DNA of 64,000 nt, taken from the IMG/VR virus record IMGVR_UViG_3300031951_021468. One strand, 5' to 3'. The stretch is from an uncultured virus (IMG/VR IMGVR_UViG_3300031951_021468) (taxonomy: Duplodnaviria > Heunggongvirae > Uroviricota > Caudoviricetes). Positions 3,924 through 41,392 of the stretch are shown here, piece after piece (within the stretch, counting starts at the first letter, position 1; each line of letters starts with the position of its first letter). A program made the position numbers and the translations under genes. The notes under the pieces were generated by a model that was given only the letters and a program-made list of their open reading frames with translations, was not told where the DNA came from and did not search any database.

Positions 3924-4008
3924 TGGTGGGAGCAGCAGGACTCGAACCTACGAACTGTTTCCAGAGGAGATTTACAGTCTCCCGCAATTGCCTCTATGCG
4001 ATACTCCC
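3924..4008 (-). tRNA. tRNA-Tyr(GTA)
   Basis: Cloverleaf, GGAGA-CTGTAAA-TCTCC, long variable arm, CCA. Confidence 0.93.
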
Positions 4009-4053
4009 TTGCTTTATCTGTTATGGTCGTTAATGCCTTCGCATTGAATGTCG

Positions 4054-4145
4054 TGGTGGGTGATGGAGGAATTTCACCTCTCGCCATATTTCCCCACGTT
4101 CTGATGCGGCACATGTTTTACAGACATGCAGGGGAGTCATCACCC
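4054..4145 (-). ncRNA. D-arm-less tRNA-Tyr-like RNA (GTA loop)
   Basis: 8-bp acceptor GGGTGATG/CATCACCC+ACCA; CATGT-CTGTAAA-ACATG arm; no D arm; TCCCC can pair with GGGGA in the long variable region. Confidence 0.65.
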
Positions 4146-4231
4146 AATGGTATAGTGATAGTCGCTTTCCATTGATTGTTTTATTTTATGATCGGGGCGG
4201 TCATCTCAGACCGCAATGTACGAGAAACTTG

Positions 4232-4373
4232 TGGGACCTATCGGAGTTGAACCAATGACTGATGCAGAAGTCTGACCTTCGGTCCCGATTGCAAGACAGG
4301 CAGGATTCGAACCTGCGATCTCTGGGGGTATGCATCGGCCCAGCGTTTCATCCGCAAAACTTCCGTCAAGCAA
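4232..4373 (-). ncRNA. Tandem pair of aberrant tRNA-like modules
   Basis: Module A (4289-4373) has D, T and acceptor stems with a 12-nt anticodon loop; module B (4232-4286) has acceptor and T arm but no anticodon arm; neither encodes CCA. Confidence 0.5.
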
Positions 4374-4434
4374 TCAAATTGTTTGTATATTTATTATACG
4401 CATACCGTTTGAATTTTGTTTCAATGTGTAAAAA

Positions 4435-4512
4435 TGGTCTGAGCGATTGGATTTGAACCAATGACCTCTACTCTCCCAGAGTAGCATTCTAACCAAACTG
4501 AACTACGCCCAG
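4435..4512 (-). tRNA. tRNA-Pro(GGG)
   Basis: Cloverleaf, CTACT-CTGGGAG-AGTAG, CCA. Confidence 0.92.
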
Positions 4513-4529
4513 ATTTAAACAAAATATTT

Positions 4530-4604
4530 TGGTGGGCGGTACAGGTTTCGAACCTGTGACCCCTACAATGTCAATGTAGTGCTCTACCACTGAGCTAACC
4601 GCCC
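4530..4604 (-). tRNA. tRNA-Val(GAC)
   Basis: Cloverleaf, CTACA-TTGACAT-TGTAG, CCA. Confidence 0.95.
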
Positions 4605-4696
4605 GCGTTTTTAGAACAGCAGCAGAGCCCTGAACTGAAATTACCTGGATGCTACTGTTCTAAACCTTTTCGGTTATTTAAAATTATACTAATCGG

Positions 4697-4771
4697 TGGT
4701 GGGCATGACAGGATTCGAACCTGCAACTTGATGCCTGTAATGCACCCACGCTACCATTGCGTCACACGCCC
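4697..4771 (-). tRNA. tRNA-Val(TAC)
   Basis: Cloverleaf, GGTGC-ATTACAG-GCATC, CCA. Confidence 0.88.
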
Positions 4772-4777
4772 ACATTT

Positions 4778-5539
4778 TTATTTTGCGGTTTCCAGCTTTC
4801 TCCAATAACCTCTTGGAGGCTTAGAAACTCCTAGCTTTTTACATCTTTTTTCAACAGCTTTGTCTGAAACACCAAATTCTTTTGCAATTTGACAAGTTGG
4901 CTTTTTCCATATTATCATCTCAAGTTCTTCTTTTTCTAATCCAAATTTTATGTACTTAGAAGGCTTTGGTGGCTGTGATCGATTGTTGTGTATATGGCAT
5001 TTTTTACATCTTGTAGATGTAGGCCTGCTAATTTTACCACCACAATCCAAACACTTCTTCGCTTTGTGTTTTCCGCTAAATGTTGGAGTTTGAGAGTGAC
5101 AATTTGGACACAAAATTCGAAGATTAACCAATCTGTTATCACAATTATTGCCATTAATATGATCAAGCTGTAATGAAATCGGCTTGCCATTCCATAATGA
5201 TCCTAATTTGCATTCACTACACTCATAAACAAAAATATTTTCTCTTAACAATCGTTTTTTTAAATCGTGTGATTGAATGGGCCGATTATTTGATAAATAT
5301 TCTTCCAAAGGAATTCGCTTATTTAATCTCTTGCAGCCTTTACTTGCTCCGATACCCAAAGGAATATGAGAAATATCTATACAATCCTGAGCAATGCGCT
5401 GTTTGATTCGGCTATGTTGAGCACCACTTATAGAAAGGCCAAAGCTGCGTATTATGCCCGCAATGCTCGTGCAATTATTAACTCGAAGTTGAAAATTTTC
5501 TTTGGATTCAGTCCATATTATAGATGTCTTTTTGTTCAT
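4778..5539 (-). CDS. HNH homing endonuclease with C-terminal zinc ribbon/HTH
   Basis: CSEC...LQLDHINGNNCDNRLVNLRILCPNCHSQT; start set at MNKKTS because the track ORF overlaps tRNA-Pro. Confidence 0.88.
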   Translation of the reverse strand: MNKKTSIIWTESKENFQLRVNNCTSIAGIIRSFGLSISGAQHSRIKQRIAQDCIDISHIPLGIGASKGCKRLNKRIPLEEYLSNNRPIQSHDLKKRLLRENIFVYECSECKLGSLWNGKPISLQLDHINGNNCDNRLVNLRILCPNCHSQTPTFSGKHKAKKCLDCGGKISRPTSTRCKKCHIHNNRSQPPKPSKYIKFGLEKEELEMIIWKKPTCQIAKEFGVSDKAVEKRCKKLGVSKPPRGYWRKLETAK

Positions 5540-5588
5540 ATTGTTTTTTGTACAATAAATATAATATGAACAAAGATTTTTTGAAAAA

Positions 5589-5665
5589 TGGTCGGGGATA
5601 CAGGACTCGAACCTGCGACCTGACGCTCCCAAAGCGCCCGCTCCACCAAACTGAGCTAATCCCCG
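5589..5665 (-). tRNA. tRNA-Pro(TGG)
   Basis: Cloverleaf, GGCGC-TTTGGGA-GCGTC, CCA. Confidence 0.94.
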
Positions 5666-5773
5666 ATTTTTTTCATTGATGCCATCAGACTTCCATGGTT
5701 TGGTTGGCACATTGACTTTTTATTGTCCGTTCGCCCCGCATCAATATTTAATGTCCTACCTTAGAACCGTTCG

Positions 5774-5849
5774 TGGTGGAGCCAGAGAGACTCGAACTCT
5801 CGACCCCCTGCTTGCAAAGCAGGTGCTCTCCCAACTGAGCTATGGCCCC
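5774..5849 (-). tRNA. tRNA-Ala(TGC)
   Basis: Canonical cloverleaf with G3-U70, CCA. Confidence 0.96.
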
Positions 5850-5921
5850 GAAAATGTTCTGTTATCTATAATACGATCAGAATCACAAAAAATTAGCGAT
5901 TTTATGAAATCTGATTAAAAA

Positions 5922-5998
5922 TGGTGACCCGCCAGAGTGTCGATCTCTGTTTGCCGCGCTGAAAACGCGGAGTCCTAGCCAACGTAGACGAGCGGGCC
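5922..5998 (-). tRNA. tRNA-Glu(TTC)
   Basis: CCGCG-TTTTCAG-CGCGG; T loop ATCGACA; CCA. Confidence 0.88.
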
Positions 5999-6103
5999 GC
6001 TCGATAAGGGAGGCTTCACCTTCTCGCCTCCCCCGACTTGAGCGCCTTTCCGCTCGGGTCAGATGTCTATCCATCAGTCATCGCAGTAGGTGTTTAATCA
6101 CTG

Positions 6104-6481
6104 CTAAGTCTTGGGCGGTGTGTCTTCGCCAAAAGTACGATAGAAGCTCACTTCGATAGAGTAGCAAGTGTCGAGTTCGCCACACCAGCGAATCACCACC
6201 GTCCCCTTGATTGTACCGATTCTATAGAACGTCCATTCTACAGATGTGTCTTCCGAAGAAGACTTTTCTGCGAAAAGAATCGGCGTTCCGACCAAATCGT
6301 TCAAGTCGCCACATATGTCTTCCACCCAAACTGCCTCGCAGCAATCCTGAAAGTGTGACATGTGATATGCTTCCTGATCGTCTACTATAAAGGAGATTTT
6401 TTCCTCTTTCTTGGAGTAAAAGACCTCTCTCAAAGTCTTGCCTTTCAGCACTTCGAAGTTTGCGTATTCCCATCTGTTCAT
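6104..6481 (-). CDS. Conserved phage hypothetical protein
   Basis: HFQDCCEAVWVEDICGDL...WTFYRIGTIKGTVVIRW pattern; GGAG SD; ends TAG-CAG-TGA. Confidence 0.8.
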   Translation of the reverse strand: MNRWEYANFEVLKGKTLREVFYSKKEEKISFIVDDQEAYHMSHFQDCCEAVWVEDICGDLNDLVGTPILFAEKSSSEDTSVEWTFYRIGTIKGTVVIRWCGELDTCYSIEVSFYRTFGEDTPPKT

Positions 6482-6534
6482 CTAATTATGTTCTCCATAT
6501 CAGTAGATTAGCACCAGACTAACAAATGAAAATT

Positions 6535-6611
6535 TGGTGACCCCACGGAGTGTCGATCTCCGTTTTCCACCGTGAGATGGTGGTGTCACAGCCATCGTAG
6601 ACGATGGGGCC
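6535..6611 (-). tRNA. tRNA-Glu(CTC)
   Basis: CCACC-ATCTCAC-GGTGG; T loop ATCGACA; CCA. Confidence 0.86.
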
Positions 6612-6619
6612 GAAAATTT

Positions 6620-6696
6620 TGGTGGGGCTAGAGGGAATTGAACCCTCACCCAAGGTTTTTCAGACCTTTGTGCTCACCAAATTACACCAATGCCCC
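6620..6696 (-). tRNA. tRNA-Phe(GAA)
   Basis: AAGGT-CTGAAAA-ACCTT, CCA. Confidence 0.88.
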
Positions 6697-6750
6697 ATTT
6701 GTTACACAAACCTCGCCCTCTTTCGGGGGTATGCTCTACCAAATACGTTT

Positions 6751-7161
6751 TTATGATGAAGTAAGCTTTAATCCATGCGGAGTATACTTGTCCCCCTGCA
6801 ATGTCACAAACACAAATTTTGCCGATGCCGTGTGAATGCGTTCAGGGAATTTTTGATCTCTTGGTTGTCGATACGCCTCTACTTGAACTGTGATTGAATT
6901 GTTTCTTAATTCAATAATTTCAGCTTCGAAGAAAATTTGATCTCCCATCTGAGCAGCTTTGTGAAAAGTTATTTCCAATACCTTATATGTTACTGCGTTG
7001 TCACAGGACGATTCTGAAAACTGAAGAAGTTCGCTACAAGCCGCGGCTGCACAAAGATCAAGCTTTGCCATAAAAGCTCCGCCAAAAATTTGTGGCATCC
7101 TAAAATTGCAATGTTCAGGCATTACAATAAAATTACTTTGGTATTTGGTTCTTAAATTCAT
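6751..7161 (-). CDS. Hotdog-fold acyl-CoA thioesterase
   Basis: VMPEHCN...IFGGAFMAKLD...FHKAAQMGDQI...FVFV motif. Confidence 0.85.
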   Translation of the reverse strand: MNLRTKYQSNFIVMPEHCNFRMPQIFGGAFMAKLDLCAAAACSELLQFSESSCDNAVTYKVLEITFHKAAQMGDQIFFEAEIIELRNNSITVQVEAYRQPRDQKFPERIHTASAKFVFVTLQGDKYTPHGLKLTSS

Positions 7162-7210
7162 AATGTTCCAACTTTAATACGATCATAATTCACAAAAGAT
7201 TTTGCAAACA

Positions 7211-7285
7211 TGGTGCCACCGATAGGATTCGAACCTATGACCCCGCCCTTATCAGGGGCGTGCTCTACCACTGAGCTACGACGGC
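7211..7285 (-). tRNA. tRNA-Ile(GAT)
   Basis: CGCCC-CTGATAA-GGGCG, CCA. Confidence 0.94.
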
Positions 7286-7299
7286 ACTTTACTTTCCTC

Positions 7300-7475
7300 A
7301 TACTGTTTCGAAGATCGGCGTGGAATTGCGACGCCGCGTTTTACTTCTGATCACGTGCGTGATCCTTCTCTACCCCACGGGGCGTCCTACCATTAAACGA
7401 CCAGACACAAGTGCCTGCGTGGGACTCGAACCCACATTTCCCCTCCGCATCCGATTAGAGTTCTCTTCGAACTGA
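7300..7475 (-). ncRNA. Y-RNA (YrlA)-like circularly permuted tRNA mimic
   Basis: Order T arm (7419-7435), loop-closed acceptor stem (7402-7417), D arm (7383-7399), enclosed by nested long-range stems. Confidence 0.55.
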
Positions 7476-7580
7476 TTACCGATCAGATTTTATCGGAAAA
7501 TATCATCGGGGGCTATTTAACAACGGCTGCTCAGCAAAGAAGTTGTGCTTCCGTGGCGTTTAGCCCCTTCAAATTGCCAA

Positions 7581-7743
7581 TACGTTGTGCGTTAGGGAAT
7601 CGAACCCCATGCGCCGCCGCTATTTGCTGCCTTTCAACACATTCCTGTTGGCTCAGAAAATCATGTTGTTGTGGACTCGAACCACTCACCCACCAAGGGA
7701 ACTTCAGAATCGAACTGAATACATACCATTTGCGCACAACGTA
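7581..7743 (-). ncRNA. Structured RNA with three T-loop hairpins inside an 11-bp closing stem
   Basis: TACGTTGTGCG/CGCACAACGTA ends; three hairpins with TTCGATT, TTCGAGT and TTCGATT loops. Confidence 0.55.
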
Positions 7744-7822
7744 AATCACTGAGGGCTTTTGCCCTCATATTACATTTAAACCTATTTAATTTTCAATATA
7801 CATACGAATCTCTTCGATAATT

Positions 7823-7909
7823 TGGCAGAGGCAGGGGGACTTGAACCCCCACTTGCATTAACTGTCCCTGGTTTTGGAGACCAGTGTTTTGCCATTAAAC
7901 TATACCCCT
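7823..7909 (-). tRNA. tRNA-Trp(CCA) with extended variable region
   Basis: CTGGT-CTCCAAA-ACCAG; 17-nt variable region; CCA. Confidence 0.85.
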
Positions 7910-10427: not shown

Positions 10428-10871
10428 TTATACACTGTTTTTAAATCCACGGGGGATTGCAGTGATTTGATAACTTTCGGCCTCTAGAAACTTCATTATG
10501 TGTTCAATGGCCAAAGATATTTGCACTTCATCGCTGCAATAGAAAAAATCAATCGCGGCATAACCATGTTCATCCCACCCATGATAGGTCAAATGGCTCT
10601 CGCTTATTACAACAACTCCTGAAACGCCATGGGGCTCAAACTCATGAAACGCTTCTGTGACGATGTTGCACTTGGCCAGCTTTGCTGCATCATGAAAAGC
10701 TTGTTGAATTTTCTCAACCCCGCTCATATTATTGGGGTTGCATCCAATAAGCTCCAGAATTACATGCATACCTAATGAATTACAGGATTTTATGGTCGGG
10801 ATTTCACATGTATTGGCATTAAAAAATTCAACCGATAAGTATTGACTATTGTTAGCAGAGAGGTCTTTCAT
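10428..10871 (-). CDS. speD: S-adenosylmethionine decarboxylase proenzyme
   Basis: HEFEPHGVSGVVVISESHLTYHGW...IDFFYC; ATGA-coupled start. Confidence 0.9.
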   Translation of the reverse strand: MKDLSANNSQYLSVEFFNANTCEIPTIKSCNSLGMHVILELIGCNPNNMSGVEKIQQAFHDAAKLAKCNIVTEAFHEFEPHGVSGVVVISESHLTYHGWDEHGYAAIDFFYCSDEVQISLAIEHIMKFLEAESYQITAIPRGFKNSV

Positions 10872-21196: not shown

Positions 21197-23002
21197 TTAA
21201 GAATTATAGTAGTTTAAAATTGTCTCTCTTGAACTAAAGCCTCTGCTTCTGGGAGAAACAATAAGTGTTGGGGATGATTGTGCGCACTTAAATACACTCC
21301 TCTTTGATCGATTCCAGGCATCACGTGCCGCCGACACAAAAACATCCTTGGGATAATTGTATGGGTCGCATTCGCAAAAATAATCAGTAGTTAACGTGTG
21401 ATTATCATAGGCTTCTTCCAGGTCTCTTACAGTCATCCTGCGTCGGATAATTTCGGCACAAATTCCAGAATACAGAGGATAATCAAATGGGTCTTCGCTA
21501 CTGTCTGCAAGCTCAGCCATGGGCTTGGTGCTTCCATCATAAAGATTGATTGGAATGATTTCATCCTCATATATTTCATTGATATATTTCGCCAAGCAAT
21601 TTACCTCTGATTTTGTCAGGTCACCAAGCGGCTGGAAAAGACCCACGCTGCCCACGTCATGGAAAGTAAACCATCCAAGTACATTTTCAGTGTGATTGCC
21701 CGTGGAAATAATAGCCGATTTAAAATAATGACAGATTGACAGGCCAAGCAATGTTCGACCTACAGCATCTAATGTAGTGTCCACCATCTGGGGAAGCTCT
21801 TCGCTGGCAAGGGGCATGCGACAACCATCTTCTGCAGATTCCAAGTAAGCATTTTGGAAAATCGACTTGGCATGATTTGTAAGATCGCCCACGGGCATCC
21901 AATACAGGGGGACCCCGAGCTTGTCAGCAATGTACTGAGCATTATTTTTAGTAATATCTCCATTATATTGGGAGGGATTACTAATGAAAACACAACGATC
22001 AGGCCCAAGCGCCTTGGCGCAAAGCGCTGCCACAACGGCGCTGTCTATGCCACCAGAAACGTGAACTTGGGCACGCTCTATGCCAGTTTGGTCCATCAAC
22101 TGACGCAAAGCATATTTCAGGGCACACCAGATAGTCTGGTATTTATCATTCTTTGAATATAGAAATCTCCTTTGATTACGCTTGTCAATTCCATCCCAAT
22201 CATTGTCAAACCAATTGAAAATTTTCCCCTTTTTTAAGGAGCAAGATATAATTTTTTCTTCGAAAGACGGAAGGATGTCAAACAGATTGCCCAAGGCATC
22301 ATAAACCATCGACCTACCGTCATAAACCATAAAGTTCTTAACAATATCTCCCACCCCCACGGCGTTAACATAAAAAATTCCTACTTTATGATCTCGTGCA
22401 AGATTAGAAAGCAAATTTTGACGAGCTGAATGCTTCTCATAAGTGTAGTAACTATAGTTGATGCAAAAGATCATGGAAAGATCAGGATTGAGGGCTTTAA
22501 GCTCTGCAACCAAGTTTCGGTCATGATCGGGTGCCCAGATATCCTCACAGATAAGAACGCCCGCCACCTGATCGCCAACCTGGAATGTGAATAGATTCTC
22601 ACCAGGAATAAAATATTTTCGATCTTCATGCTGAAAATCATTAGCCAACAAAATCTTGTCGTAAACAGCAAGAAGTTTTCCGTCTCTTGCGATCATAGCA
22701 CTGTTGTGGAGTCTGATGTTACCGTTAGGTTCTCTATCAGGCGTGGCAAATCTCGGTGCTCCAAAAATAGCAGTTTTGTTTGTGCCCTTAGTCGCTTTAA
22801 CAATTTGATCCACACACTCAAGGGCGTCATTGATAAAGTCGTCACTTTCAAAAAGCGACCCGCAATTATACCCAGTGACAGCAAGTTCTGGAAATATAAT
22901 CACGGAATTGTCGCTTGATTCTTCCACGGTGTTGATAATTTTCGCAGTATTCCCGTATAGGTCGCCCGTGCGGAGTTCTAATTGAGCAATAACAATGTTC
23001 AT
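21197..23002 (-). CDS. nadE: Glutamine-dependent NAD+ synthetase
   Basis: CN-hydrolase domain (FPEL, K, ICED) fused to the SGGIDS synthetase domain. Confidence 0.93.
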   Translation of the reverse strand: MNIVIAQLELRTGDLYGNTAKIINTVEESSDNSVIIFPELAVTGYNCGSLFESDDFINDALECVDQIVKATKGTNKTAIFGAPRFATPDREPNGNIRLHNSAMIARDGKLLAVYDKILLANDFQHEDRKYFIPGENLFTFQVGDQVAGVLICEDIWAPDHDRNLVAELKALNPDLSMIFCINYSYYTYEKHSARQNLLSNLARDHKVGIFYVNAVGVGDIVKNFMVYDGRSMVYDALGNLFDILPSFEEKIISCSLKKGKIFNWFDNDWDGIDKRNQRRFLYSKNDKYQTIWCALKYALRQLMDQTGIERAQVHVSGGIDSAVVAALCAKALGPDRCVFISNPSQYNGDITKNNAQYIADKLGVPLYWMPVGDLTNHAKSIFQNAYLESAEDGCRMPLASEELPQMVDTTLDAVGRTLLGLSICHYFKSAIISTGNHTENVLGWFTFHDVGSVGLFQPLGDLTKSEVNCLAKYINEIYEDEIIPINLYDGSTKPMAELADSSEDPFDYPLYSGICAEIIRRRMTVRDLEEAYDNHTLTTDYFCECDPYNYPKDVFVSAARDAWNRSKRSVFKCAQSSPTLIVSPRSRGFSSRETILNYYNS

Positions 23003-23030
23003 TAATTATTCTACGAAAAGAAATCAATAT

Positions 23031-23357
23031 TTATACCACGGGTTTCCATGTGTTAAATTTTCTAAAAGCCTTTCTTTTTTCTCCCCAGATTGGTTCCGTG
23101 CAAATTGCAGTGTCTCCCATCTGGTCATCAGGCTCGTAAAAAGTAACAAATTTTATGTCATTCTCTTGGCAAACATAGCTTATTTTTTCCAATTCAAATG
23201 TATTTTCAACCGAGCAAAGAACAAGGTGGCAAGAATCGGGGCAGCCAAATTTAGCTCCCGATTCTTGCGCAGCATGACAGGCCTGAACCATCTGGTCCGC
23301 TACGCCAATGTCTTTTCTAACGAAAATATATATATAAGGCGCGGTAGTCTAGCTCAT
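23031..23357 (-). CDS. PTH2-like peptidyl-tRNA hydrolase with in-frame TAG at codon 3
   Basis: ATG-AGC-TAG-ACT...YIYIFVRKD...QMVQACHAA...FYEPD...TAI; ATG overlaps the upstream TGA; the track ORF (start 23291) lacks the conserved first strand. Confidence 0.75.
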
Positions 23358-24079
23358 GATTTTTCACCACTATCTATGGCACCAAGAGTTTCGTCAGTCC
23401 ATCCATTGTTTCCGCATTTTAAGCCCGTTGACGTTGAAGCATACTCTACTGTGGCGATTGCAAATGCAGGGAAGCTTTTATCCCAATAGGATATTTGCAC
23501 AATTTGATTTAAATCAAGCCACTGCGGACATTCATGCCAATATTCTTGCTTAAATTTAATTTCTCCGATCTTAATATTTGAAAGATCAACAATATTTACG
23601 TAATTAGGCGAATTACAGAACGGGTCATACCCCATTACAAAAGCAAAATCTGCATGGCACCATGCTTCATTATCCTTATAATCTTCTTCAATTTCTTTGT
23701 CCACAAGAGTAAAAGCAACTCCTTTATATACTACATGATGAAATCTGGGTATATAAAATTCTAAAAACTTAATGCAACCCTGTGGTTCAAGTTCAGCTAA
23801 TAATTTCATTTCTGGCAATGAATAGACAAATATTTTTTTGCTTTCACTTACTAGTGCGTACCATTCACCGTCATGTCTAAACGGATGAAACACAACACGC
23901 GGGGACTTAAAATCGGAAACCTCGTATGTTCCTATTTTAGTTTCTGAGTCCTCATTAACCTCATAGACATCAACATAGTGATATTTAATCTTGTGAACTT
24001 TTCCGTCACTAAACTTGCAAGGCTTTAAAAAACCTTCACCAAGGCGAGCAACATATGGCGGTTTGTATTCGGTAGTCAT
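23354..24079 (-). CDS. Hypothetical protein
   Basis: Start MTTEYK after AAAGGA, coupled to the upstream stop. Confidence 0.75.
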   Translation of the reverse strand: MTTEYKPPYVARLGEGFLKPCKFSDGKVHKIKYHYVDVYEVNEDSETKIGTYEVSDFKSPRVVFHPFRHDGEWYALVSESKKIFVYSLPEMKLLAELEPQGCIKFLEFYIPRFHHVVYKGVAFTLVDKEIEEDYKDNEAWCHADFAFVMGYDPFCNSPNYVNIVDLSNIKIGEIKFKQEYWHECPQWLDLNQIVQISYWDKSFPAFAIATVEYASTSTGLKCGNNGWTDETLGAIDSGEKS

Positions 24080-24080
24080 T

Positions 24081-24674
24081 TTAGTTTCCTTTGTATTTTT
24101 CCATAAGCCGATGATATTCTTTAAGTTCATTTTCTTCTCGTTCTTTTTTACGTTGTCTTTCGCGGTCGCGGGCATCTTTAATCTCTTGTGCTTTTTTCTC
24201 TTGCGCGGCTTTTTCTTTTTCGGTTTTCATATTGTCAATAACGCTGGTGTCCCAGAGTGCCTGTATAGGAATATCATAAGAATATTCTTCATCGGGACAG
24301 CACCCCCTCAAACATCCACGAGAAGAATATTCAACCGTGATATGGTCGTCGCCAATAGCATAAATTCGTTGAAACCTTTCTCCGCTTTCTCCCATTGTGA
24401 GCACGTAATAATCAGAAACCATTTTAATTTTTTCTTCAAAAGCTTTATATAGCTTTGACATTAAAATAACAGACCTTTCGGTCCAATTTTCGGATTGTTT
24501 ATCATAGTCTGCTGGCACCCAGGTCTCTGGGTCAGCAAGGGTTACAAGCTCGACGCCATCCCTAATACGAGGCGCTTGATAGTGGTCGAATGCCTGAGCC
24601 AGACTTCGTGATCCATAAGTTTCCAAAGTCTCAACCACTTGCAAATCTTCATTTATTACAATTTTAGGCCACAT
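24081..24674 (-). CDS. Hypothetical protein with C-terminal coiled coil
   Basis: Start MWPKIV overlapping the end of the upstream gene. Confidence 0.7.
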   Translation of the reverse strand: MWPKIVINEDLQVVETLETYGSRSLAQAFDHYQAPRIRDGVELVTLADPETWVPADYDKQSENWTERSVILMSKLYKAFEEKIKMVSDYYVLTMGESGERFQRIYAIGDDHITVEYSSRGCLRGCCPDEEYSYDIPIQALWDTSVIDNMKTEKEKAAQEKKAQEIKDARDRERQRKKEREENELKEYHRLMEKYKGN

Positions 24675-25107
24675 TCTCGGAAGAATCCTCCAAAATATAA
24701 GCGCTTTGCTTAAGTATATTTTCCCTTCTATCAAGACGATAATAAAATTTAGAAATAGATTTTGCAGTTTCGAGATTTAAAATATCCCCGAAATTATCAG
24801 CCCAAAATTTTTGACTCTTTGATACTGGACAAGCCATTGATCTCAGGATTGTACTAGAAGTATACATTGAGTTTGAAACAATAATTGGAGTCTCGTACTC
24901 CCAAGATGGGTCTTGCTTTTTGGGCATTGTAAATCCTTTTCTCCAATCTTTTCCACGAAGAATTGCATAAAGCATGTAATCTGCTGCAGTAAGTTTGTAT
25001 TCTGAGTTAGAATTTACAATTTCACTCCATTTAGACCGAAGCTTTTCGTAGCCATCAGGAGAGTTAAAGAACGTCGATGTTATGTTTTTATTAAGTGTGT
25101 TTTTCAT
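24664..25107 (-). CDS. Hypothetical protein (LYAILRGK motif), first gene after the amber minigene
   Basis: 147-aa ORF; start region complementary to 25171-25181. Confidence 0.8.
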   Translation of the reverse strand: MKNTLNKNITSTFFNSPDGYEKLRSKWSEIVNSNSEYKLTAADYMLYAILRGKDWRKGFTMPKKQDPSWEYETPIIVSNSMYTSSTILRSMACPVSKSQKFWADNFGDILNLETAKSISKFYYRLDRRENILKQSAYILEDSSENVA

Positions 25108-25223
25108 ATTTGTATTTCTGTTTGTAATCGTGGGCTATGCAAAGCCATGAACGAAGTTAGTGAATGGAATTACAAATATGATTAAGGCGGACGAATGACC
25201 TACAACATAGGTGAGACCTCCTT
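25104..25223 (-). promoter_or_regulatory. Amber-containing minigene with anti-start helix (translational switch)
   Basis: SD AAGGAGGT 25216-25223; ATG TTG TAG GTC ATT CGT CCG CCT TAA 25208-25182; TCATATTTGTA pairs with TACAAATATGA over the downstream ATG. Confidence 0.7.
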
Positions 25224-25378
25224 TTTAATTGAGCCGTTAATTTGCCCAATAAAATAAATCAATCTTGATGAAATTATCAGGGGACGAGCCTGAACATCTC
25301 TGCAAATATGGATGGGTTTTTCCATCGTCTTTTTCCTGTGGCGCAGAGTTAATCCACTTGTACCAGAACACCATATAT

Positions 25379-25454
25379 TGGTGAAGGGAGTGGGGATCGA
25401 ACCCACGACATGCTGATTAAGAGTCAGCTGCTCTACCGACTGAGCTATCCCTCC
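25379..25454 (-). tRNA. tRNA-Lys(CTT)
   Basis: GCTGA-CTCTTAA-TCAGC, CCA. Confidence 0.95.
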
Positions 25455-25465
25455 ATGAAAAATTC

Positions 25466-25541
25466 TGGTGGGCCAGGCGGGGCTCGAACCCGCGACCCGC
25501 GGTTTAAAAGACCGCTGCTCTACCAACTGAGCTACTGACCC
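25466..25541 (-). tRNA. tRNA-Lys(TTT)
   Basis: GCGGT-CTTTTAA-ACCGC, CCA. Confidence 0.95.
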
Positions 25542-25609
25542 AAAATTTAAAGTTTTGGCCCCGAAGGTTTTCTGATCGCAGGAAAAGTTAAAAATAACTT
25601 TTGATTTGC

Positions 25610-25700
25610 AGACACATACGCAAAGAGGCCAGATTCTAGCCTCGGAAAGAACTAGAACCTAGTAATGTTTAGGTTTGCGTTTAAGAATGTTGTGTCTCAT
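25610..25700 (-). promoter_or_regulatory. Lys-rich leader ORF with alternative hairpins upstream of the tRNA-Lys genes
   Basis: MRHNILKRKPKHY-TAG (25700-25659), three AAA codons, overlapping 1:2, 2:3 and 3:4 pairings. Confidence 0.45.
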
Positions 25701-25757
25701 TTTGAATTACCTTAATTCTCGTGTTATATCTTTAATACCTGCTTTTCAACAAAAAAG

Positions 25758-25973
25758 TTAGCATCTTTTCCGAAAAATTTCAAAAAATAAAGCAATTAAG
25801 AAAATAGCAAGCACGGAAATGCCCAAGCTGGCAAATATATTTAGGCTCAAAATCAATGATAAGGCCTTTGCTATAATTAAAATAAAAATGCTTATGACGG
25901 CCCCATACATGACCCCTTTAAGAAATACGCCGTCTGGTTGATCAGATTCTTGATAATTGTTTTTGTTTGACAT
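25758..25973 (-). CDS. Small membrane protein (two TM helices)
   Basis: MSNKNNY...two hydrophobic stretches; track start overlaps a tRNA. Confidence 0.65.
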   Translation of the reverse strand: MSNKNNYQESDQPDGVFLKGVMYGAVISIFILIIAKALSLILSLNIFASLGISVLAIFLIALFFEIFRKRC

Positions 25974-25997
25974 GACTCTGTATTGTTTTAGAAACCT

Positions 25998-26072
25998 TGG
26001 CGCTCTAGGCGGGACTCGAACCCGCGACATGCCCTTTTAGAGAGGGCCACTCTACCACTGAGTTACTAGAGC
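25998..26072 (-). tRNA. Amber suppressor tRNA (anticodon CTA) #1
   Basis: Full cloverleaf, GCCCT-CTCTAAA-AGGGC, G73, CCA. Confidence 0.9.
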
Positions 26073-26093
26073 GCGTATTTTTAATATATTGTC

Positions 26094-26164
26094 TGCTCCA
26101 CACGGGAATCGAACCCGCGACCAAGGTTTTAGAGACCCCAGCTCTACCATTGAGCTAATGGAGC
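26094..26164 (-). tRNA. Amber suppressor tRNA (anticodon CTA) #2, no encoded CCA
   Basis: Cloverleaf, GGGGT-CTCTAAA-ACCTT, acceptor GCTCCAT/GTGGAGC, A73. Confidence 0.82.
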
Positions 26165-26238
26165 AAGCAATATAATTATAATACGTATTTTTAAATAAAA
26201 AGTAGGCAATTTGGGACTAAAAACCCAAAAAAAATCAT

Positions 26239-26403
26239 ATGAACCGAAAAGTTTTTTATGTAGAATGCAGTCGGCCTGGAGTTTATAGCGGAGTCAAATT
26301 TAAAGCAGGAGATATTAAAAAATTCTATTCACTTTTGGCTGCTCAGCATTTTATTAAAAAAGCCCCTGTGGGCATGTTTAAGTTGAGTCCGCCCAAAAAA
26401 TAA
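26239..26403 (+). CDS. Small basic hypothetical protein (54 aa)
   Basis: Hand-translated MNRKVFYVEC...SPPKK*, ends at the hairpin shared with tmRNA. Confidence 0.45.
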   Translation: MNRKVFYVECSRPGVYSGVKFKAGDIKKFYSLLAAQHFIKKAPVGMFKLSPPKK

Positions 26404-26405
26404 AA

Positions 26406-26428
26406 GCAGTATGAAAAAATCATACTGC
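26406..26428. terminator. Hairpin between convergent small ORF and tmRNA
   Basis: GCAGTATGA/TCATACTGC. Confidence 0.6.
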
Positions 26429-26433
26429 AAAAT

Positions 26434-26791
26434 TGGTGGAGGCAGCGGGATTTGAACCCGCTTGTTGTCCGTACAGAGCCTATGCTCGCCACAAGGTTCT
26501 CCTCATATTAATCTTAAGTCAAGCTTTGGCTAGAGGCCAGCACTTTCTTGACAGCAGCTTGATTAATATCGCTTTTTCAACTACAAGCCGAAGTTTCAAA
26601 GCTAAGTCTGATTTATTTTACAATCCCCATTAACTACAGACTCGTCTCAGGTTCATGCGCCAGCTTAATTAAGCAGCGAAAGCGAAGTTGTTTTCCGCAT
26701 TTACTTTTTGCATCCTTTGTTATCGCGGCCAAGGATACATCCGCGCCTTGCAAACATAAGATAGCAACGTCAATCGATCCCTTATGCCCCC
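26434..26791 (-). ncRNA. ssrA: tmRNA, tag peptide (A)AENNFAFAA
   Basis: GGGGGCA/TGCCTCC-ACCA acceptor with G3-U70, T arm, tag ORF 26698-26669. Confidence 0.93.
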
Positions 26792-26838
26792 GTAGTGTTT
26801 TATTATTCTACGTTTGTTGATCAACACCTGTTGCAAAT

Positions 26839-27600
26839 TCACTCTAAATCAAAAAGTTCATCAGTTGAAAGATTACCATCTTTATCTATTTCCCCAAGAT
26901 TATATGGGGCAAACTGAGCCCCGTTATATCCCCAGCCGAAGTCCCCAGTCCTCAAAATAGGCTTTTGCGCCTTGGCATGCCCGTCAGACCAAAGTACTAC
27001 GCCATGCTTATTGTGTCGGCCCTGAAATGTTGGGAAATCGAAAGAAGGTGGCTCTAAGTATCCCGTGCCCTCTAAAACAGGATTGTCATAAGCCCATGTA
27101 TTTAGTCTCGCATTTGATGCAAAAGCGACTGTCTCAGATGGAAACTCAATCGATGAAGCATTTACGGGAATGGGATTTTCTTCCCAGTTCGGAGGAGAAT
27201 AAGTTGACGGACTCAAATAAGCATAATTATATCCATACCCAGAGAAATTCATACTTCCCGTAACTTGAGCATTAAAAGATGAATCCTTGTAAATACCATT
27301 GTTTCGAGTATAAGGATATAAAAGGCCTTCCTCAACTCTAAGTTCTTGTTCGTCTTCTTCCCAACATCCCCACCAATAAACCACACCATGCTCATCAGGC
27401 ACAGAAACTCTCATTAAGGTATCATCGTAGTCAGTATTGTAAAGCTGCCAGGAAATACCAAGTTGGCGCATGTTGGAAATCGACTGAGTTTTCTTGGCAG
27501 CTTCCTTTGCTTGTGAAAAAACTGGGAAAAGGATTGCAGCCAAAACCGCGATAATTGCGATCACAACAAGTAATTCAATAAGTGTAAAAGCCTGTCTCAT
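26839..27600 (-). CDS. Prepilin-type N-terminal cleavage/methylation domain protein (H-X9-DG C-terminus)
   Basis: [25 protein letters not shown]...[16 protein letters not shown]. Confidence 0.92.
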
Positions 27601-39109: not shown

Positions 39110-40507
39110 TCATCCCCAGGCAGGAGAACAATTTCTCCAACAAGTCCCATACTGATCTCCACTTCCGCAAGGACATTGGTCAGTTAGCTTGTATTCTTTT
39201 CGGGGTTTGGGTACGCCGATGCTTCGATCATTTAAAATAGTAGCGTCTGGCGCTTTCGTATAGCTAAAGCTATTTTCTCTTATTGTTTTCAGCGTGTATA
39301 CAAGGCTGCTTGCCGAATTACTTACATCACAATTATTATAAACATAGTTTTTAAGCGTCAATCCTCGTAGCTCTCTCTCTTGAGTTTTTCTAATTAACAA
39401 GCTTGTTTTTTCAACCCACTCTTCGGTTGTTTCCGCTATGTATCCTCCGACCCCCTTGGTCTGAAGATGAAATCTATAATAAGGGGCGACTTTACTGGCT
39501 ACATAAGGCACTCCCATTGCTCCCATTTCTATGAGCCTTAAGTCACTTTTGCATCGATTAAATGCACAGTTTTTAATCGGCGCTAAACCAATATCAAAAT
39601 AAGATAACTTTTCTGGATAATATTTGAATGATGTTGGCGGGATTAAAAAATATCTGTTTTCTGCCAACCCCCAGGAGTTCAAACAAAAATGCATAGCCAT
39701 TTCTGGATCGCAATACATTCCTATTAAAGAATTTGGATTCTGTTGAAGAATTGTATTTATTGCATCTGACATTGGCTCCAAATCAGCAATATGCGTAATG
39801 CTGCCCGCCCAGCCCACAACAACTGTGTTTTCATCTACATAGCATCCTTGAGATGCGGCAATTTCATTTCGCTTGGCCTTGGAGGAAGGCGACCAATTTC
39901 TGCACTTAAGGCTCAGGTCCAAGCCATTATGAAGAATGTGACTATGCGGGAATTGTTCTTCATAATAACCTTTAAGCTCTCTGGTTGAGAAAATAACCCC
40001 ATCTGATTCTGCAAGAAAATATTCAAAGTTCCTTAAATTTTTATTCCCAAATTCCGTGTTTATATCAAAAAATCCAAAAGCTGGGTTTTTTACATTAATC
40101 TCATGAAAACAATCATCAATGTCATAAATCAACGTAATGTCATATCTTTTACAGCATGCCCTTATCGCTTCGAACATGTCTCGATCAGAACAACGCGAAA
40201 GAATAACATGGGTTGCTCCCTTGAAAATAATCATATCTAAATCAGATATGTCACCGATGTCAGATATTCTTATTTCTACTCCAAGTTTTTCCAAATGCAT
40301 TAACGGAAATTTCAATCTGTAATGACCACACGCGCCCTTATCAGCAGCAATACCAACAACGCAAAAATTCTCATTAGAAAAACGAGATGCTATTTTATAC
40401 GAATCTTTATTATATAAATTTGGGTCGTCGGGTGCGCCAAATAGTTTTTGCGCAATTCTGCTTGCACCATCTGGTAAACTGCCCTTTATATTTCCCGTAA
40501 TATTCAT
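39110..40507 (-). CDS. GT-B glycosyltransferase with C-terminal SEC-C motif
   Basis: GHYR...YDIDD...VGWAGS.TH..D...DIGLAP...FN.CKS..RLIE; CPCGSG..Y..C. Confidence 0.8.
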   Translation of the reverse strand: MNITGNIKGSLPDGASRIAQKLFGAPDDPNLYNKDSYKIASRFSNENFCVVGIAADKGACGHYRLKFPLMHLEKLGVEIRISDIGDISDLDMIIFKGATHVILSRCSDRDMFEAIRACCKRYDITLIYDIDDCFHEINVKNPAFGFFDINTEFGNKNLRNFEYFLAESDGVIFSTRELKGYYEEQFPHSHILHNGLDLSLKCRNWSPSSKAKRNEIAASQGCYVDENTVVVGWAGSITHIADLEPMSDAINTILQQNPNSLIGMYCDPEMAMHFCLNSWGLAENRYFLIPPTSFKYYPEKLSYFDIGLAPIKNCAFNRCKSDLRLIEMGAMGVPYVASKVAPYYRFHLQTKGVGGYIAETTEEWVEKTSLLIRKTQERELRGLTLKNYVYNNCDVSNSASSLVYTLKTIRENSFSYTKAPDATILNDRSIGVPKPRKEYKLTDQCPCGSGDQYGTCWRNCSPAWG

Positions 40508-40555
40508 ATTGATTATTTGCTTCTTTATACAATCAATAATTTGTAAAATAAACAT

Positions 40556-41392
40556 ATGGCTTCTAATTTAATAATTATTTTTTGCCGAACTCATGAAGAG
40601 GCTTCTTATGCTGGCGCAAAACTTGGCCATATTGAAAACACAGATAGGTTTTTTATATTTCTTGGTCACACGCCAAGTGCTTCGGAAATATCATGGATGA
40701 CCGAGGCGGACAGGACAATGAATCTTGAAAGGGTTATTGAACATCCATTGTGCGAGGAATTGGCTGTAAAAACTGGAGTAATATATTCAAATTTTACTCA
40801 TTGGAATTTGTTGTTTTGCTGGGCTCATGAATGTCCGTCCAAGGATAACATTCTCGATTGTTTAAAACAAATAAGCTCTTCATCAGCTTATTATGAAAAT
40901 GAGTTTGTTTGGGGCAATATTAGAGAAAACATTATCATTGATGGATTTGAAGCCGTATATAGAAAAAAACAAATCTTAGAAAATCAAAATAATCAATCGG
41001 ATAGCGAGTTTGATTTTATAATGGCGATGAATGGCATAGAAGCTAGCACAAATTCGGTTATAAAATCAATCGCAGAAACAGCATCAATGACAAGTGTTGG
41101 ACTGCACCCATTGAGTAAATCAAACACTAAATTTATAAACGAAATTCAAATGATTTCCCTAATAGCAGGGAATTTTGTTCAAGAAAATCCATCAACATAT
41201 ATCATCTGCCATTCTGGTAACGTGAGCGCCACTGCCGAAACAATCGCCACCTTGCCGCCCCAAAAAACGGCTATAGTTTTTACTGAAATTTCGGATGAGG
41301 CAAGTATTATAGCCTCATCCGAAATCAAGCCCTATCGAGTACTGAAAAGCAAAGACGGGTTCAGTGTGCTTCTGTTCAAGATTCAATCATGA
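40556..41392 (+). CDS. Hypothetical protein
   Basis: 278-aa ORF. Confidence 0.7.
   Translation: MASNLIIIFCRTHEEASYAGAKLGHIENTDRFFIFLGHTPSASEISWMTEADRTMNLERVIEHPLCEELAVKTGVIYSNFTHWNLLFCWAHECPSKDNILDCLKQISSSSAYYENEFVWGNIRENIIIDGFEAVYRKKQILENQNNQSDSEFDFIMAMNGIEASTNSVIKSIAETASMTSVGLHPLSKSNTKFINEIQMISLIAGNFVQENPSTYIICHSGNVSATAETIATLPPQKTAIVFTEISDEASIIASSEIKPYRVLKSKDGFSVLLFKIQS

Follow-up and report, generated by a model that had tools for sequence, protein, structure and literature searches.

Conserved in-frame amber codons suggest that a PTH2-like gene of jumbo phages is gated by phage suppressor tRNAs

Introduction

Code 15 phages, which include crAss-like, Lak and jumbo phages, read TAG as glutamine with their own suppressor tRNA (bioRxiv 10.1101/2021.08.26.457843, PMC9523058, PMC13037316). 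Orphan suppressor tRNAs have also been described in jumbo phages that use the standard code, i.e., XacN1 (PMC5852040) and RsoM2USA (PMC8504454). In the XacN1 paper, the annotated sequence was read through at 18 amber stops, with the statement that no target gene was identifiable (PMC5852040); the RsoM2USA paper only counts UAG triplets (PMC8504454). The subject of the present work is a stretch of 64,000 nucleotides (the window) from an uncultured Caudoviricetes virus, IMG/VR record IMGVR_UViG_3300031951_021468. On its minus strand, a gene for a protein resembling the peptidyl-tRNA hydrolase PTH2 has an in-frame TAG as its third codon, and two genes for tRNAs with the anticodon CUA (tRNA-CUA) lie upstream. 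As in code 15 phages, a phage tRNA-CUA would read UAG in a host of standard code, and the proposed role is the control of phage gene expression. However, TAG is a sense codon in many, often late, genes of code 15 phages, whereas it stays a stop in the genome of the window, where it ends 40 of 401 open reading frames (ORFs). Also unlike code 15, TAGs of the type found in the window stand at codons 3-6 of the PTH2-like gene, in the gene of an HD-domain partner and in a leader minigene. XacN1 and RsoM2USA are the same phages, with the same tRNA-CUA genes, as in the loci described below, and the XacN1 ORF364 fusion and an unannotated RsoM2USA gene emerge from the sequence comparison as predicted suppressor targets.

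The occurrence of PTH2 in jumbo phages has been noted before (PMC7824862). The PTH2-like family shares with archaeal and eukaryotic PTH2 the fold, an R-x-D strand, a Q-x-x-H-A helix, an acidic residue and a Thr-Ala strand. The partners of canonical PTH2 differ from those of this family, which are an HD domain or a new helical domain. The second group of related systems is that of the regulatory arrest peptides with RAPP, RGPP or RxPP motifs (ApdA, ApdP and ApcA), together with SecM, which has RAGP (PMC10951233, PMC12992588). Similarly, a small upstream ORF in relatives of the window has R-(A/G/S)-P-P (RAPP in 4, RGPP in 3 and RSPP in 2), and the sequence that follows is predicted to pair with the ribosome-binding site (RBS) of the next gene. 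The input of the described arrest peptides is secretion or membrane insertion, whereas the phage cassette would respond to ribosomes passing an amber codon that lies 3-25 codons ahead of the motif; the minigene peptides of the cassette are also far shorter than the known arrest peptides.

Release factor 2 is autoregulated through an early in-frame UGA in prfB, and IF3 through an AUU start. In both genes, the encoded factor affects how a signal near the 5' end of its own gene is decoded, and the PTH2-like gene would be comparable. The stop of prfB is passed by a frameshift, whereas that of the PTH2-like gene would be passed by a dedicated tRNA, and an action of the PTH2-like protein back on UAG decoding is a proposal. 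In synthetic systems, an early amber codon combined with a co-expressed suppressor tRNA reportedly serves as an expression gate (PMC7969014). Those gates are engineered, and the phage cassette would be a natural, widely conserved counterpart. We found no description of an amber-gated PTH2-like gene or of an amber-dependent arrest leader in full-text searches of the literature, so the circuit is apparently unpublished.

Results

The PTH2-like gene consists of a leader, ATG AGC TAG (23349..23357, minus strand), and a body of 105 codons plus TAA (23031..23348, minus strand). The minus strand reads ATG (23357-23355) AGC TAG (23351-23349) ACT ACC GCG CCT TAT ATA TAT ATT TTC GTT AGA AAA GAC, with an A directly after the TAG, and continues in the same frame through CAG ATG (23291) GTT CAG to TAA (23033-23031). 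The leader ATG shares the sequence ATGA with the TGA of an upstream ORF of 273 amino acids (23354..24175, minus strand). No family was found for this ORF in our searches; judging from the overlap, it probably delivers ribosomes to the leader by coupling. The initial annotation of this DNA had described the ATGA overlap at 23357 with TAG as the third codon, and re-reading the sequence confirmed both, with 105 in-frame codons following. Its further statement, that the frame has no ATG, GTG or TTG from the TAG up to the Met chosen by the ORF caller (23291, 19 codons past the TAG), also proved correct. The mechanical ORF list contains only the ORF of 86 amino acids that starts at this Met (23031..23291), and the 86-residue form (P0002) is the only one in the public protein collection. 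A word-indexed protein search with the PTH2-like protein returned 6 matches only. The region 22900-25441 is covered by contigs of three DNA runs from different studies, with 0 differing letters; therefore, neither the TAG of this leader nor that of the upstream minigene described below is an assembly error.

The structure of the product of the 105 codons after the TAG was modelled with a predicted local distance difference test score (pLDDT) of 97 and a predicted template modelling score (pTM) of 0.89. A Foldseek search of the PDB using this model revealed 13 matches at E <= 0.001, namely 12 chains of six PTH2 entries (3erj, 2zv3, 1rlk, 1wn2, 1q7s and 1xty; template modelling score by query 0.72-0.80) and 2gax, a protein of unknown function. 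Solved PTH2 chains were also found by sequence, with a profile built from 75 relatives (best E 2.3e-5). Both results agree with the PTH2-like fold proposed in the initial annotation. The Pfam family PTH2 (PF01981) was matched by 49 of the 75 relatives at E<0.1 (best 6.2e-8), and XacN1 ORF364 reached 25.3 bits. The window protein scored 13.2 bits (E 0.11), below the gathering cut-off of 23 bits. When the 108-codon product was compared with the 86-residue ORF, as had been suggested, this match appeared only with the N-terminal extension included.

In the model, strand beta 1 (YIYIFVR) comprises residues 5-11 and the ORF caller's Met is residue 20, which places the YIFVRKD strand between the TAG and this Met, as first noted; the start of helix 1 also precedes the Met. 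R11 is invariant in the family, and Y7, D13 and Q19 are at least 90% conserved. A whole domain is given only by the part after the TAG, in which strand 1 and these four residues precede the called Met. The conserved family residues are all present in the window copy. The family comprises 960 matches at E<0.001 among 1.84 billion representatives, mostly of about 100-130 amino acids, and is a separate branch from canonical PTH2.

The conservation of the TAG was examined in related loci. A tblastn search of a phage collection of 50,697 records matched 35 records, all of jumbo or large phages, and all 35 align from query residue 4-5, i.e., upstream of the called Met. In many of these GenBank records the PTH2-like gene is unannotated or shortened. 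A second tblastn search with P0004 as the query added no further lineage. Related loci were found with a 12-row alignment (a single-protein query gave 1 locus), and the start regions were read in 16 phage loci, 22 IMG/VR loci and 10 of 12 loci from metagenome-assembled genomes (MAGs), the partial matches L060 and L061 being left aside. Exclusion of the duplicates L033, L035, L036 and L043 left 44 loci.

In 30 of the 44 loci, the body is preceded in its own frame by a start codon with 1-4 sense codons and then a stop, which is TAG in 30 of 30, with no TAA and no TGA. Where a leader is lacking (14 loci), the first in-frame stop met upstream is TGA in 10, TAA in 3 and TAG in 1. Clustering of the 44 loci at 60% identity gave 30 clusters, 17 with TAG throughout, 13 with none and 0 mixed. 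The base after the leader TAG is A in 19, G in 7, C in 4 and T in 0 of the 30 leaders; the 40 TAG-terminated ORFs of the genome have T in 16, G in 11, C in 7 and A in 6. A purine after UAG favours suppression in Escherichia coli. Most stand-alone leader loci (22 of 27) have no ATG, GTG or TTG from the TAG to the conserved Arg. In the fused HD-PTH2 genes of XacN1, Xoo-sp13 and CM1, the leader stands at the start of the fusion (M K TAG or M K K TAG). The XacN1 ORF364 fusion begins with M K TAG, and the unannotated RsoM2USA gene begins with M L TAG.

The window is part of a single virus record of 378,848 bp with 34 tRNA genes and a transfer-messenger RNA (tmRNA), i.e., of a jumbo phage. ARAGORN finds two tRNA-CUA genes in it, copy a (26093..26165, minus strand) and copy b (25998..26072, minus strand, CCA encoded), each with a regular cloverleaf and the loop CUCUAAA; copy b is 76% identical to copy a. 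They are located 2.7 kb upstream of the PTH2-like gene on the same strand, adjoining the tmRNA and two tRNA-Lys genes. The nearest other tRNA of the genome to both copies is tRNA-Lys(UUU), with 71-75% identity. Given the anticodon and the cloverleaf, both tRNAs are predicted amber suppressors. The phage tmRNA (26434..26791, minus strand; tag AENNFAFAA) stands directly upstream of the pair and may belong to the cassette, serving ribosome rescue after read-through.

Of the 30 leader loci, 27 come from records that also contain a tRNA-CUA, often 0.1-3 kb away. These are the window, ME3, LR756511, RsoM2USA, CBB, Yen9-04, Arash, Xoo-sp13, CM1, GAP32, BF, XbC2, the L005 contig, L027, L032, L037, L040, L046, L041, L045, six MAG loci and XacN1. 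The tRNA-CUA of XacN1 is counted from its paper only (PMC5852040), and that of RsoM2USA is also given in PMC8504454. The distance is 0.1-0.7 kb in ME3, L032, L037, L040, L046 and all ten MAG loci. The remaining leader loci are L058, which has a tRNA with an irregular loop holding CUA, Kaldavass, which is unchecked, and L044, where no tRNA-CUA was found in a contig that is a 13% complete fragment, which is not evidence of absence. For the fragmentary loci L026 and L029, the search for tRNA-CUA used a strict pattern only, and its result is likewise not evidence of absence. In RaK2 the gene starts normally, and both the leader TAG and a regular tRNA-CUA are missing; 8 tRNAs and one degenerate tRNA-like sequence are present. 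The latter (L022 19542-19617, record positions 195541-195616) has the anticodon region AUCUAAG and no proper stem, and may be a decayed suppressor. The recurrence of the TAG in 17 of 30 clusters and its co-occurrence with tRNA-CUA support the initial proposal that the full-length enzyme would need amber read-through.

The genome uses the standard code and is not recoded. The stops in a crude set of 401 ORFs are TAA in 290, TGA in 71 and TAG in 40, and no internal TAG was found in the large ORFs of the window. A whole-genome scan for ATG, at most 8 codons, TAG and a long ORF gave 39 matches, compared with 75 for TAA and 74 for TGA; most of these matches are due to chance, and the scan revealed no second convincing amber-gated gene in the genome. 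The conserved in-frame TAGs are restricted to one small cassette. Pairs of same-frame ORFs joined by TAG were considered as read-through genes and rejected; there are three such pairs, and no domain spans the TAG in any of them. They lie outside the window, at 111321-113123, 40352-41068 and 226896-228926 of genome C1, and the downstream ORF of the first (111321-113123) is a sigma-70-like protein.

A second amber codon lies 1.8 kb upstream of the PTH2-like gene, in a minigene that occupies, with its RBS, 25182..25225 on the minus strand. The RBS is AAAAGGAGG (25225-25217), a strong site with GGAGG 8 bases ahead of the ATG at 25208. The minigene (25208-25182) reads ATG TTG TAG GTC ATT CGT CCG CCT TAA, i.e., M L stop V I R P P stop. 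The initial annotation had mentioned an upstream minigene with TAG at the same codon position as in the PTH2-like gene; it is real, with TAG as codon 3. The same design, consisting of an RBS, a start, 1-3 codons, TAG, 3-25 codons, a basic or small residue and Pro-Pro, recurs in 21 of the 44 loci. A pattern search over 623 kb from cassette loci gave 9 cases of TAG and Pro-Pro with an RBS on the gene strand, and 0 on the opposite one. No match was obtained in the same 623 kb when TAG was replaced by TAA or TGA, or when Pro-Pro was replaced by Gly-Gly, Ala-Ala, Thr-Thr, Val-Val or Ser-Ser. Pro-Pro ahead of a stop slows release. Many relatives have motifs for which ribosome arrest has been reported (PMC12992588, PMC10951233), namely RAPP (L051, L053, L054 and L027), RGPP (L050, L055 and L044), RSPP (L056 and L057) and RPPP (L030).

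The minigene is followed by a predicted switch helix (25104..25181, minus strand), in which the segment directly after the minigene TAA (25181-25167) pairs with 25118-25104, a segment that contains the ATG of the partner gene (25107-25105). The predicted fold has an energy of -30.7 kcal/mol and a z-score of -3.56, and none of 200 shuffled sequences reached this stability. Among 18 relatives, 17 (all but L055) have a minimum-energy fold that pairs a segment at or just past the Pro-Pro codons with the RBS of the next gene. The helix sequences vary by lineage yet remain complementary (L051, L053 and L057, by comparison and not as a formal covariation count). In the MAG contig L059 (5518-6285), the minigene, the partner gene and the PTH2-like gene stand in one frame, split only by two TAGs, which resembles a three-part fusion punctuated by amber codons. 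In L052 (5922-6000), a TAG followed by I-R-S-P-P-L stands right after the tRNA-CUA with no start codon ahead, and may be a decayed or non-canonically started leader.

The partner gene (24664..25107, minus strand) encodes 147 amino acids and has no visible RBS. In P0135 and P0121, the PTH2-like domain has an N-terminal fusion partner, and the first 60 residues of the 147-residue protein are homologous to it (41% identity, with E 7e-13 and 1e-10, respectively). In the MAG loci and several IMG/VR loci, the partner gene lies between the tRNA-CUA and the PTH2-like gene. The 147-residue partner matched no Pfam family, and an Atlas search led to unnamed clusters only. Its structure model has a pLDDT of 69 and gave no fold match in the PDB at E<0.8.

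An HD-domain protein takes the place of this partner in the CBB group, ME3, Arash, RsoM2USA, L005 and L032; its gene lies directly downstream of the PTH2-like gene or is fused to it (the XacN1 group). The genome of the window has no homologue of the HD partner. The HD gene has amber codons of its own. In CBB, GAP32, Yen9-04, BF, XbC2 and Kaldavass, it contains an internal TAG (L-D-T-G-TAG-G-D), and the annotation shows two small ORFs in its place; in the CBB group this TAG lies at about 1050 or 1150 in L001, L002, L009, L010, L014 and L015. The HD gene of L032, an IMG/VR contig, has an internal TAG at 10470 (D-L-P-P-TAG). A leader TAG is found in the HD genes of RsoM2USA (M K S TAG) and L005 (M T TAG), and in the fusions of XacN1, Xoo-sp13 and CM1.

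Discussion

Taken together, these results make it likely that the PTH2-like gene and the switch formed by the minigene and the partner gene are an amber-gated circuit under the phage tRNA-CUA. Coupling to the upstream ORF would probably bring ribosomes to the leader ATG, and they would meet UAG after Met-Ser. If release factor 1 acts there, only a dipeptide would be made, and a failed read-through would cost just that dipeptide. If one of the two phage tRNA-CUA outcompetes release factor 1 at the UAG, translation would run on to give the full PTH2-fold protein of 108 codons. The PTH2-like enzyme is thus probably produced only when the phage tRNAs override the stop, and its output would track suppressor activity. 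The minigene would act as a second sensor, as its Pro-Pro-stop end could be reached only after UAG read-through; a ribosome held there would cover bases of the helix and might free the start of the partner gene. The sequence, the fold, the conserved in-frame TAGs and their co-occurrence with tRNA-CUA are observed, and we infer read-through, the inserted residue, the stalling and the switch as parts of this interpretation.

The PTH2-like protein most likely acts on the peptidyl- or aminoacyl-tRNA produced by, or belonging to, the suppressor, and the cassette would therefore be a feedback or feed-forward loop on UAG suppression, with either negative feedback on the suppressor or the feed-forward provision of a clean-up enzyme. 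A further interpretation, which we offer tentatively and regard as possible rather than probable, is that the tRNA-CUA, the amber/Pro-Pro switch, the partner and the amber-gated hydrolase form a self-contained homeostat that holds stop-codon suppression at a set level. The proteins encoded by its two genes would in turn target the suppressor tRNA, either by cleaving the aminoacyl or peptidyl ester of this tRNA or by shortening its 3' end, and the cassette would be mobile between phages of at least five bacterial phyla. Under the same tentative interpretation, both protein genes would gauge UAG read-through, one directly and the other via the nascent-peptide switch. If true, the cassette would be a natural counterpart to the autoregulation of prfB, with a tRNA at its centre.

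The circuit would give the orphan amber-suppressor tRNAs of standard-code large phages a defined, testable target. It also corrects the annotation of a whole gene family that is truncated or missing in many GenBank records. More generally, what emerges is a candidate natural circuit that places a tRNA-directed enzyme under the control of a dedicated tRNA, via two different translational devices. If the proposed role of the minigene is true, the known inputs of RAPP-type arrest peptides would be broader, and an action of the enzyme on the suppressor, if real, would represent a new mode of decoding regulation.

Several observations weigh against the amber-gated circuit. Eight loci without a leader TAG (L028, L030, L039, L042, L047, L052, L055 and L056) keep a tRNA-CUA 0.1-2.3 kb upstream; therefore, the link between the gene and the tRNA is wider than the leader TAG, and gating is not obligatory. 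The closest full-length relative, P0008 (64% identity), begins normally and has no TAG. The initial annotation took a sense codon in close homologues as a sign of recent pseudogenisation, which does not hold here: despite the normal start of P0008, far more distant relatives keep the TAG. In PTH2, the Lys of the G-K-G-K stretch before the Q-x-x-H-A helix is catalytic. This Lys aligns with the near-invariant Gln19 of the family in the comparison of the profile with 2zv3 and 24bt, and peptidyl-tRNA hydrolase activity is therefore not assured. The RBS of the PTH2-like leader in the window is weak (GGTG), and the leader leans on the ATGA overlap. The z-scores of the leaders in relatives are modest, ranging from +0.8 to -3.5, with 8 of 18 at or below -2 and 16 of 18 negative. 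Furthermore, the window minigene ends in I-R-P-P-stop, which is not the tested R-x-P-P arrest motif, and the Arg position has been reported to be irreplaceable in that motif (PMC12992588, section 7).

The metatranscriptome run X15 is to be read with similar care. It has a contig of 340 nucleotides over the tmRNA (26440-26779), identical to the window and with a depth of 46.8, and identical contigs at 24890-25040 and 25060-25210 with a depth of 2, the latter including the minigene. It has no contig on the PTH2-like gene, a further point against gated expression, with the limit that contigs cannot show absence. DNA carry-over is possible in this run, and its contigs are silent on read-through, absence and transcription.

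The circuit has to be weighed against other explanations of the leader TAG. The UAG might sense termination capacity, in that a shortage of release factor 1 or peptidyl-tRNA hydrolase would allow near-cognate host tRNAs to read it, and this stress would induce the enzyme. A two-codon minigene shows slow release and a tendency to peptidyl-tRNA drop-off, as with the lambda bar minigenes, and the leaders here are very short (2-5 codons). The peptidyl-tRNA-hydrolase fold of the product, the phage tmRNA nearby and the eight loci that keep a tRNA-CUA beside a gene without leader TAG would also suit such a sensor. However, the leader records have their own tRNA-CUA in 27 of 30 cases, mostly adjoining the gene, and RaK2 lacks both the leader TAG and a regular tRNA-CUA. 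For a sensor of general termination, one would also expect TAA or TGA leaders in some lineages, but the 30 leaders include none. We consider this explanation improbable.

Equally, termination after Met-Ser could be followed by re-initiation at a non-standard codon (ATA or ATT), so that the leader would only deliver ribosomes and no suppressor would be involved. ATA and ATT do occur 6 and 8 codons past the TAG in the window, ATT directly follows the TAG in 3 of 30 leaders, and a canonical start lies near the strand in 5 of the 27 stand-alone loci; re-initiation in E. coli is also the subject of a published paper (PMC2268962). However, no start-like codon is positionally conserved over the 30 leaders, and re-initiation at the ATA or ATT of the window would lose the conserved Pro-Tyr ahead of the strand. 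In the window copy, non-standard initiation after the TAG is conceivable, but it would not account for the conserved in-frame leader from ATG to TAG. It would leave unexplained why the stop is TAG in 30 of 30 leaders and never TAA, which ends 290 of the 401 ORFs, and it would also leave unexplained the link with tRNA-CUA, the internal TAGs of the HD genes and the constant frame between leader and body. Re-initiation is therefore quite unlikely.

That the window copy is decaying, with the TAG as a nonsense mutation and an 86-residue remnant or nothing being made, is very improbable. The public collection has only the 86-residue form, and the score of the window protein is below the Pfam cut-off (13.2 vs 23 bits). 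However, the body is intact, with a pLDDT of 97 and all conserved residues kept, the TAG position recurs in 17 diverged clusters, and the sequence is identical in three independent DNA runs. It is just as improbable that TAG is a sense codon throughout the phage or in a block of genes in the style of code 15, as the two tRNA-CUA genes and the description of recoded jumbo phages with such tRNAs (PMC13037316) might suggest, because ORFs of the gene strand become little longer if TAG is taken as sense, the large ORFs of the window have no internal TAG, TAG ends 40 of the 401 crude ORFs and the three TAG-joined ORF pairs have no domain across the TAG.

Other features of the region

Directly downstream of the PTH2-like gene lies an ORF of 601 amino acids (21197-23002, minus strand) that resembles, by eye, a glutamine-dependent NAD synthetase. 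A block of 12 tRNA genes occupies 3924-7909 of the window. The tRNA-Trp(CCA) call at 7823-7909 (minus strand) has 87 bases, an unusual length for a tRNA whose variable arm is short. The region 22900-26900 is nearly whole (92-100% of sampled words) in 14 public DNA runs, which are labelled as freshwater or fungus metagenomes and dated 2017-2025.

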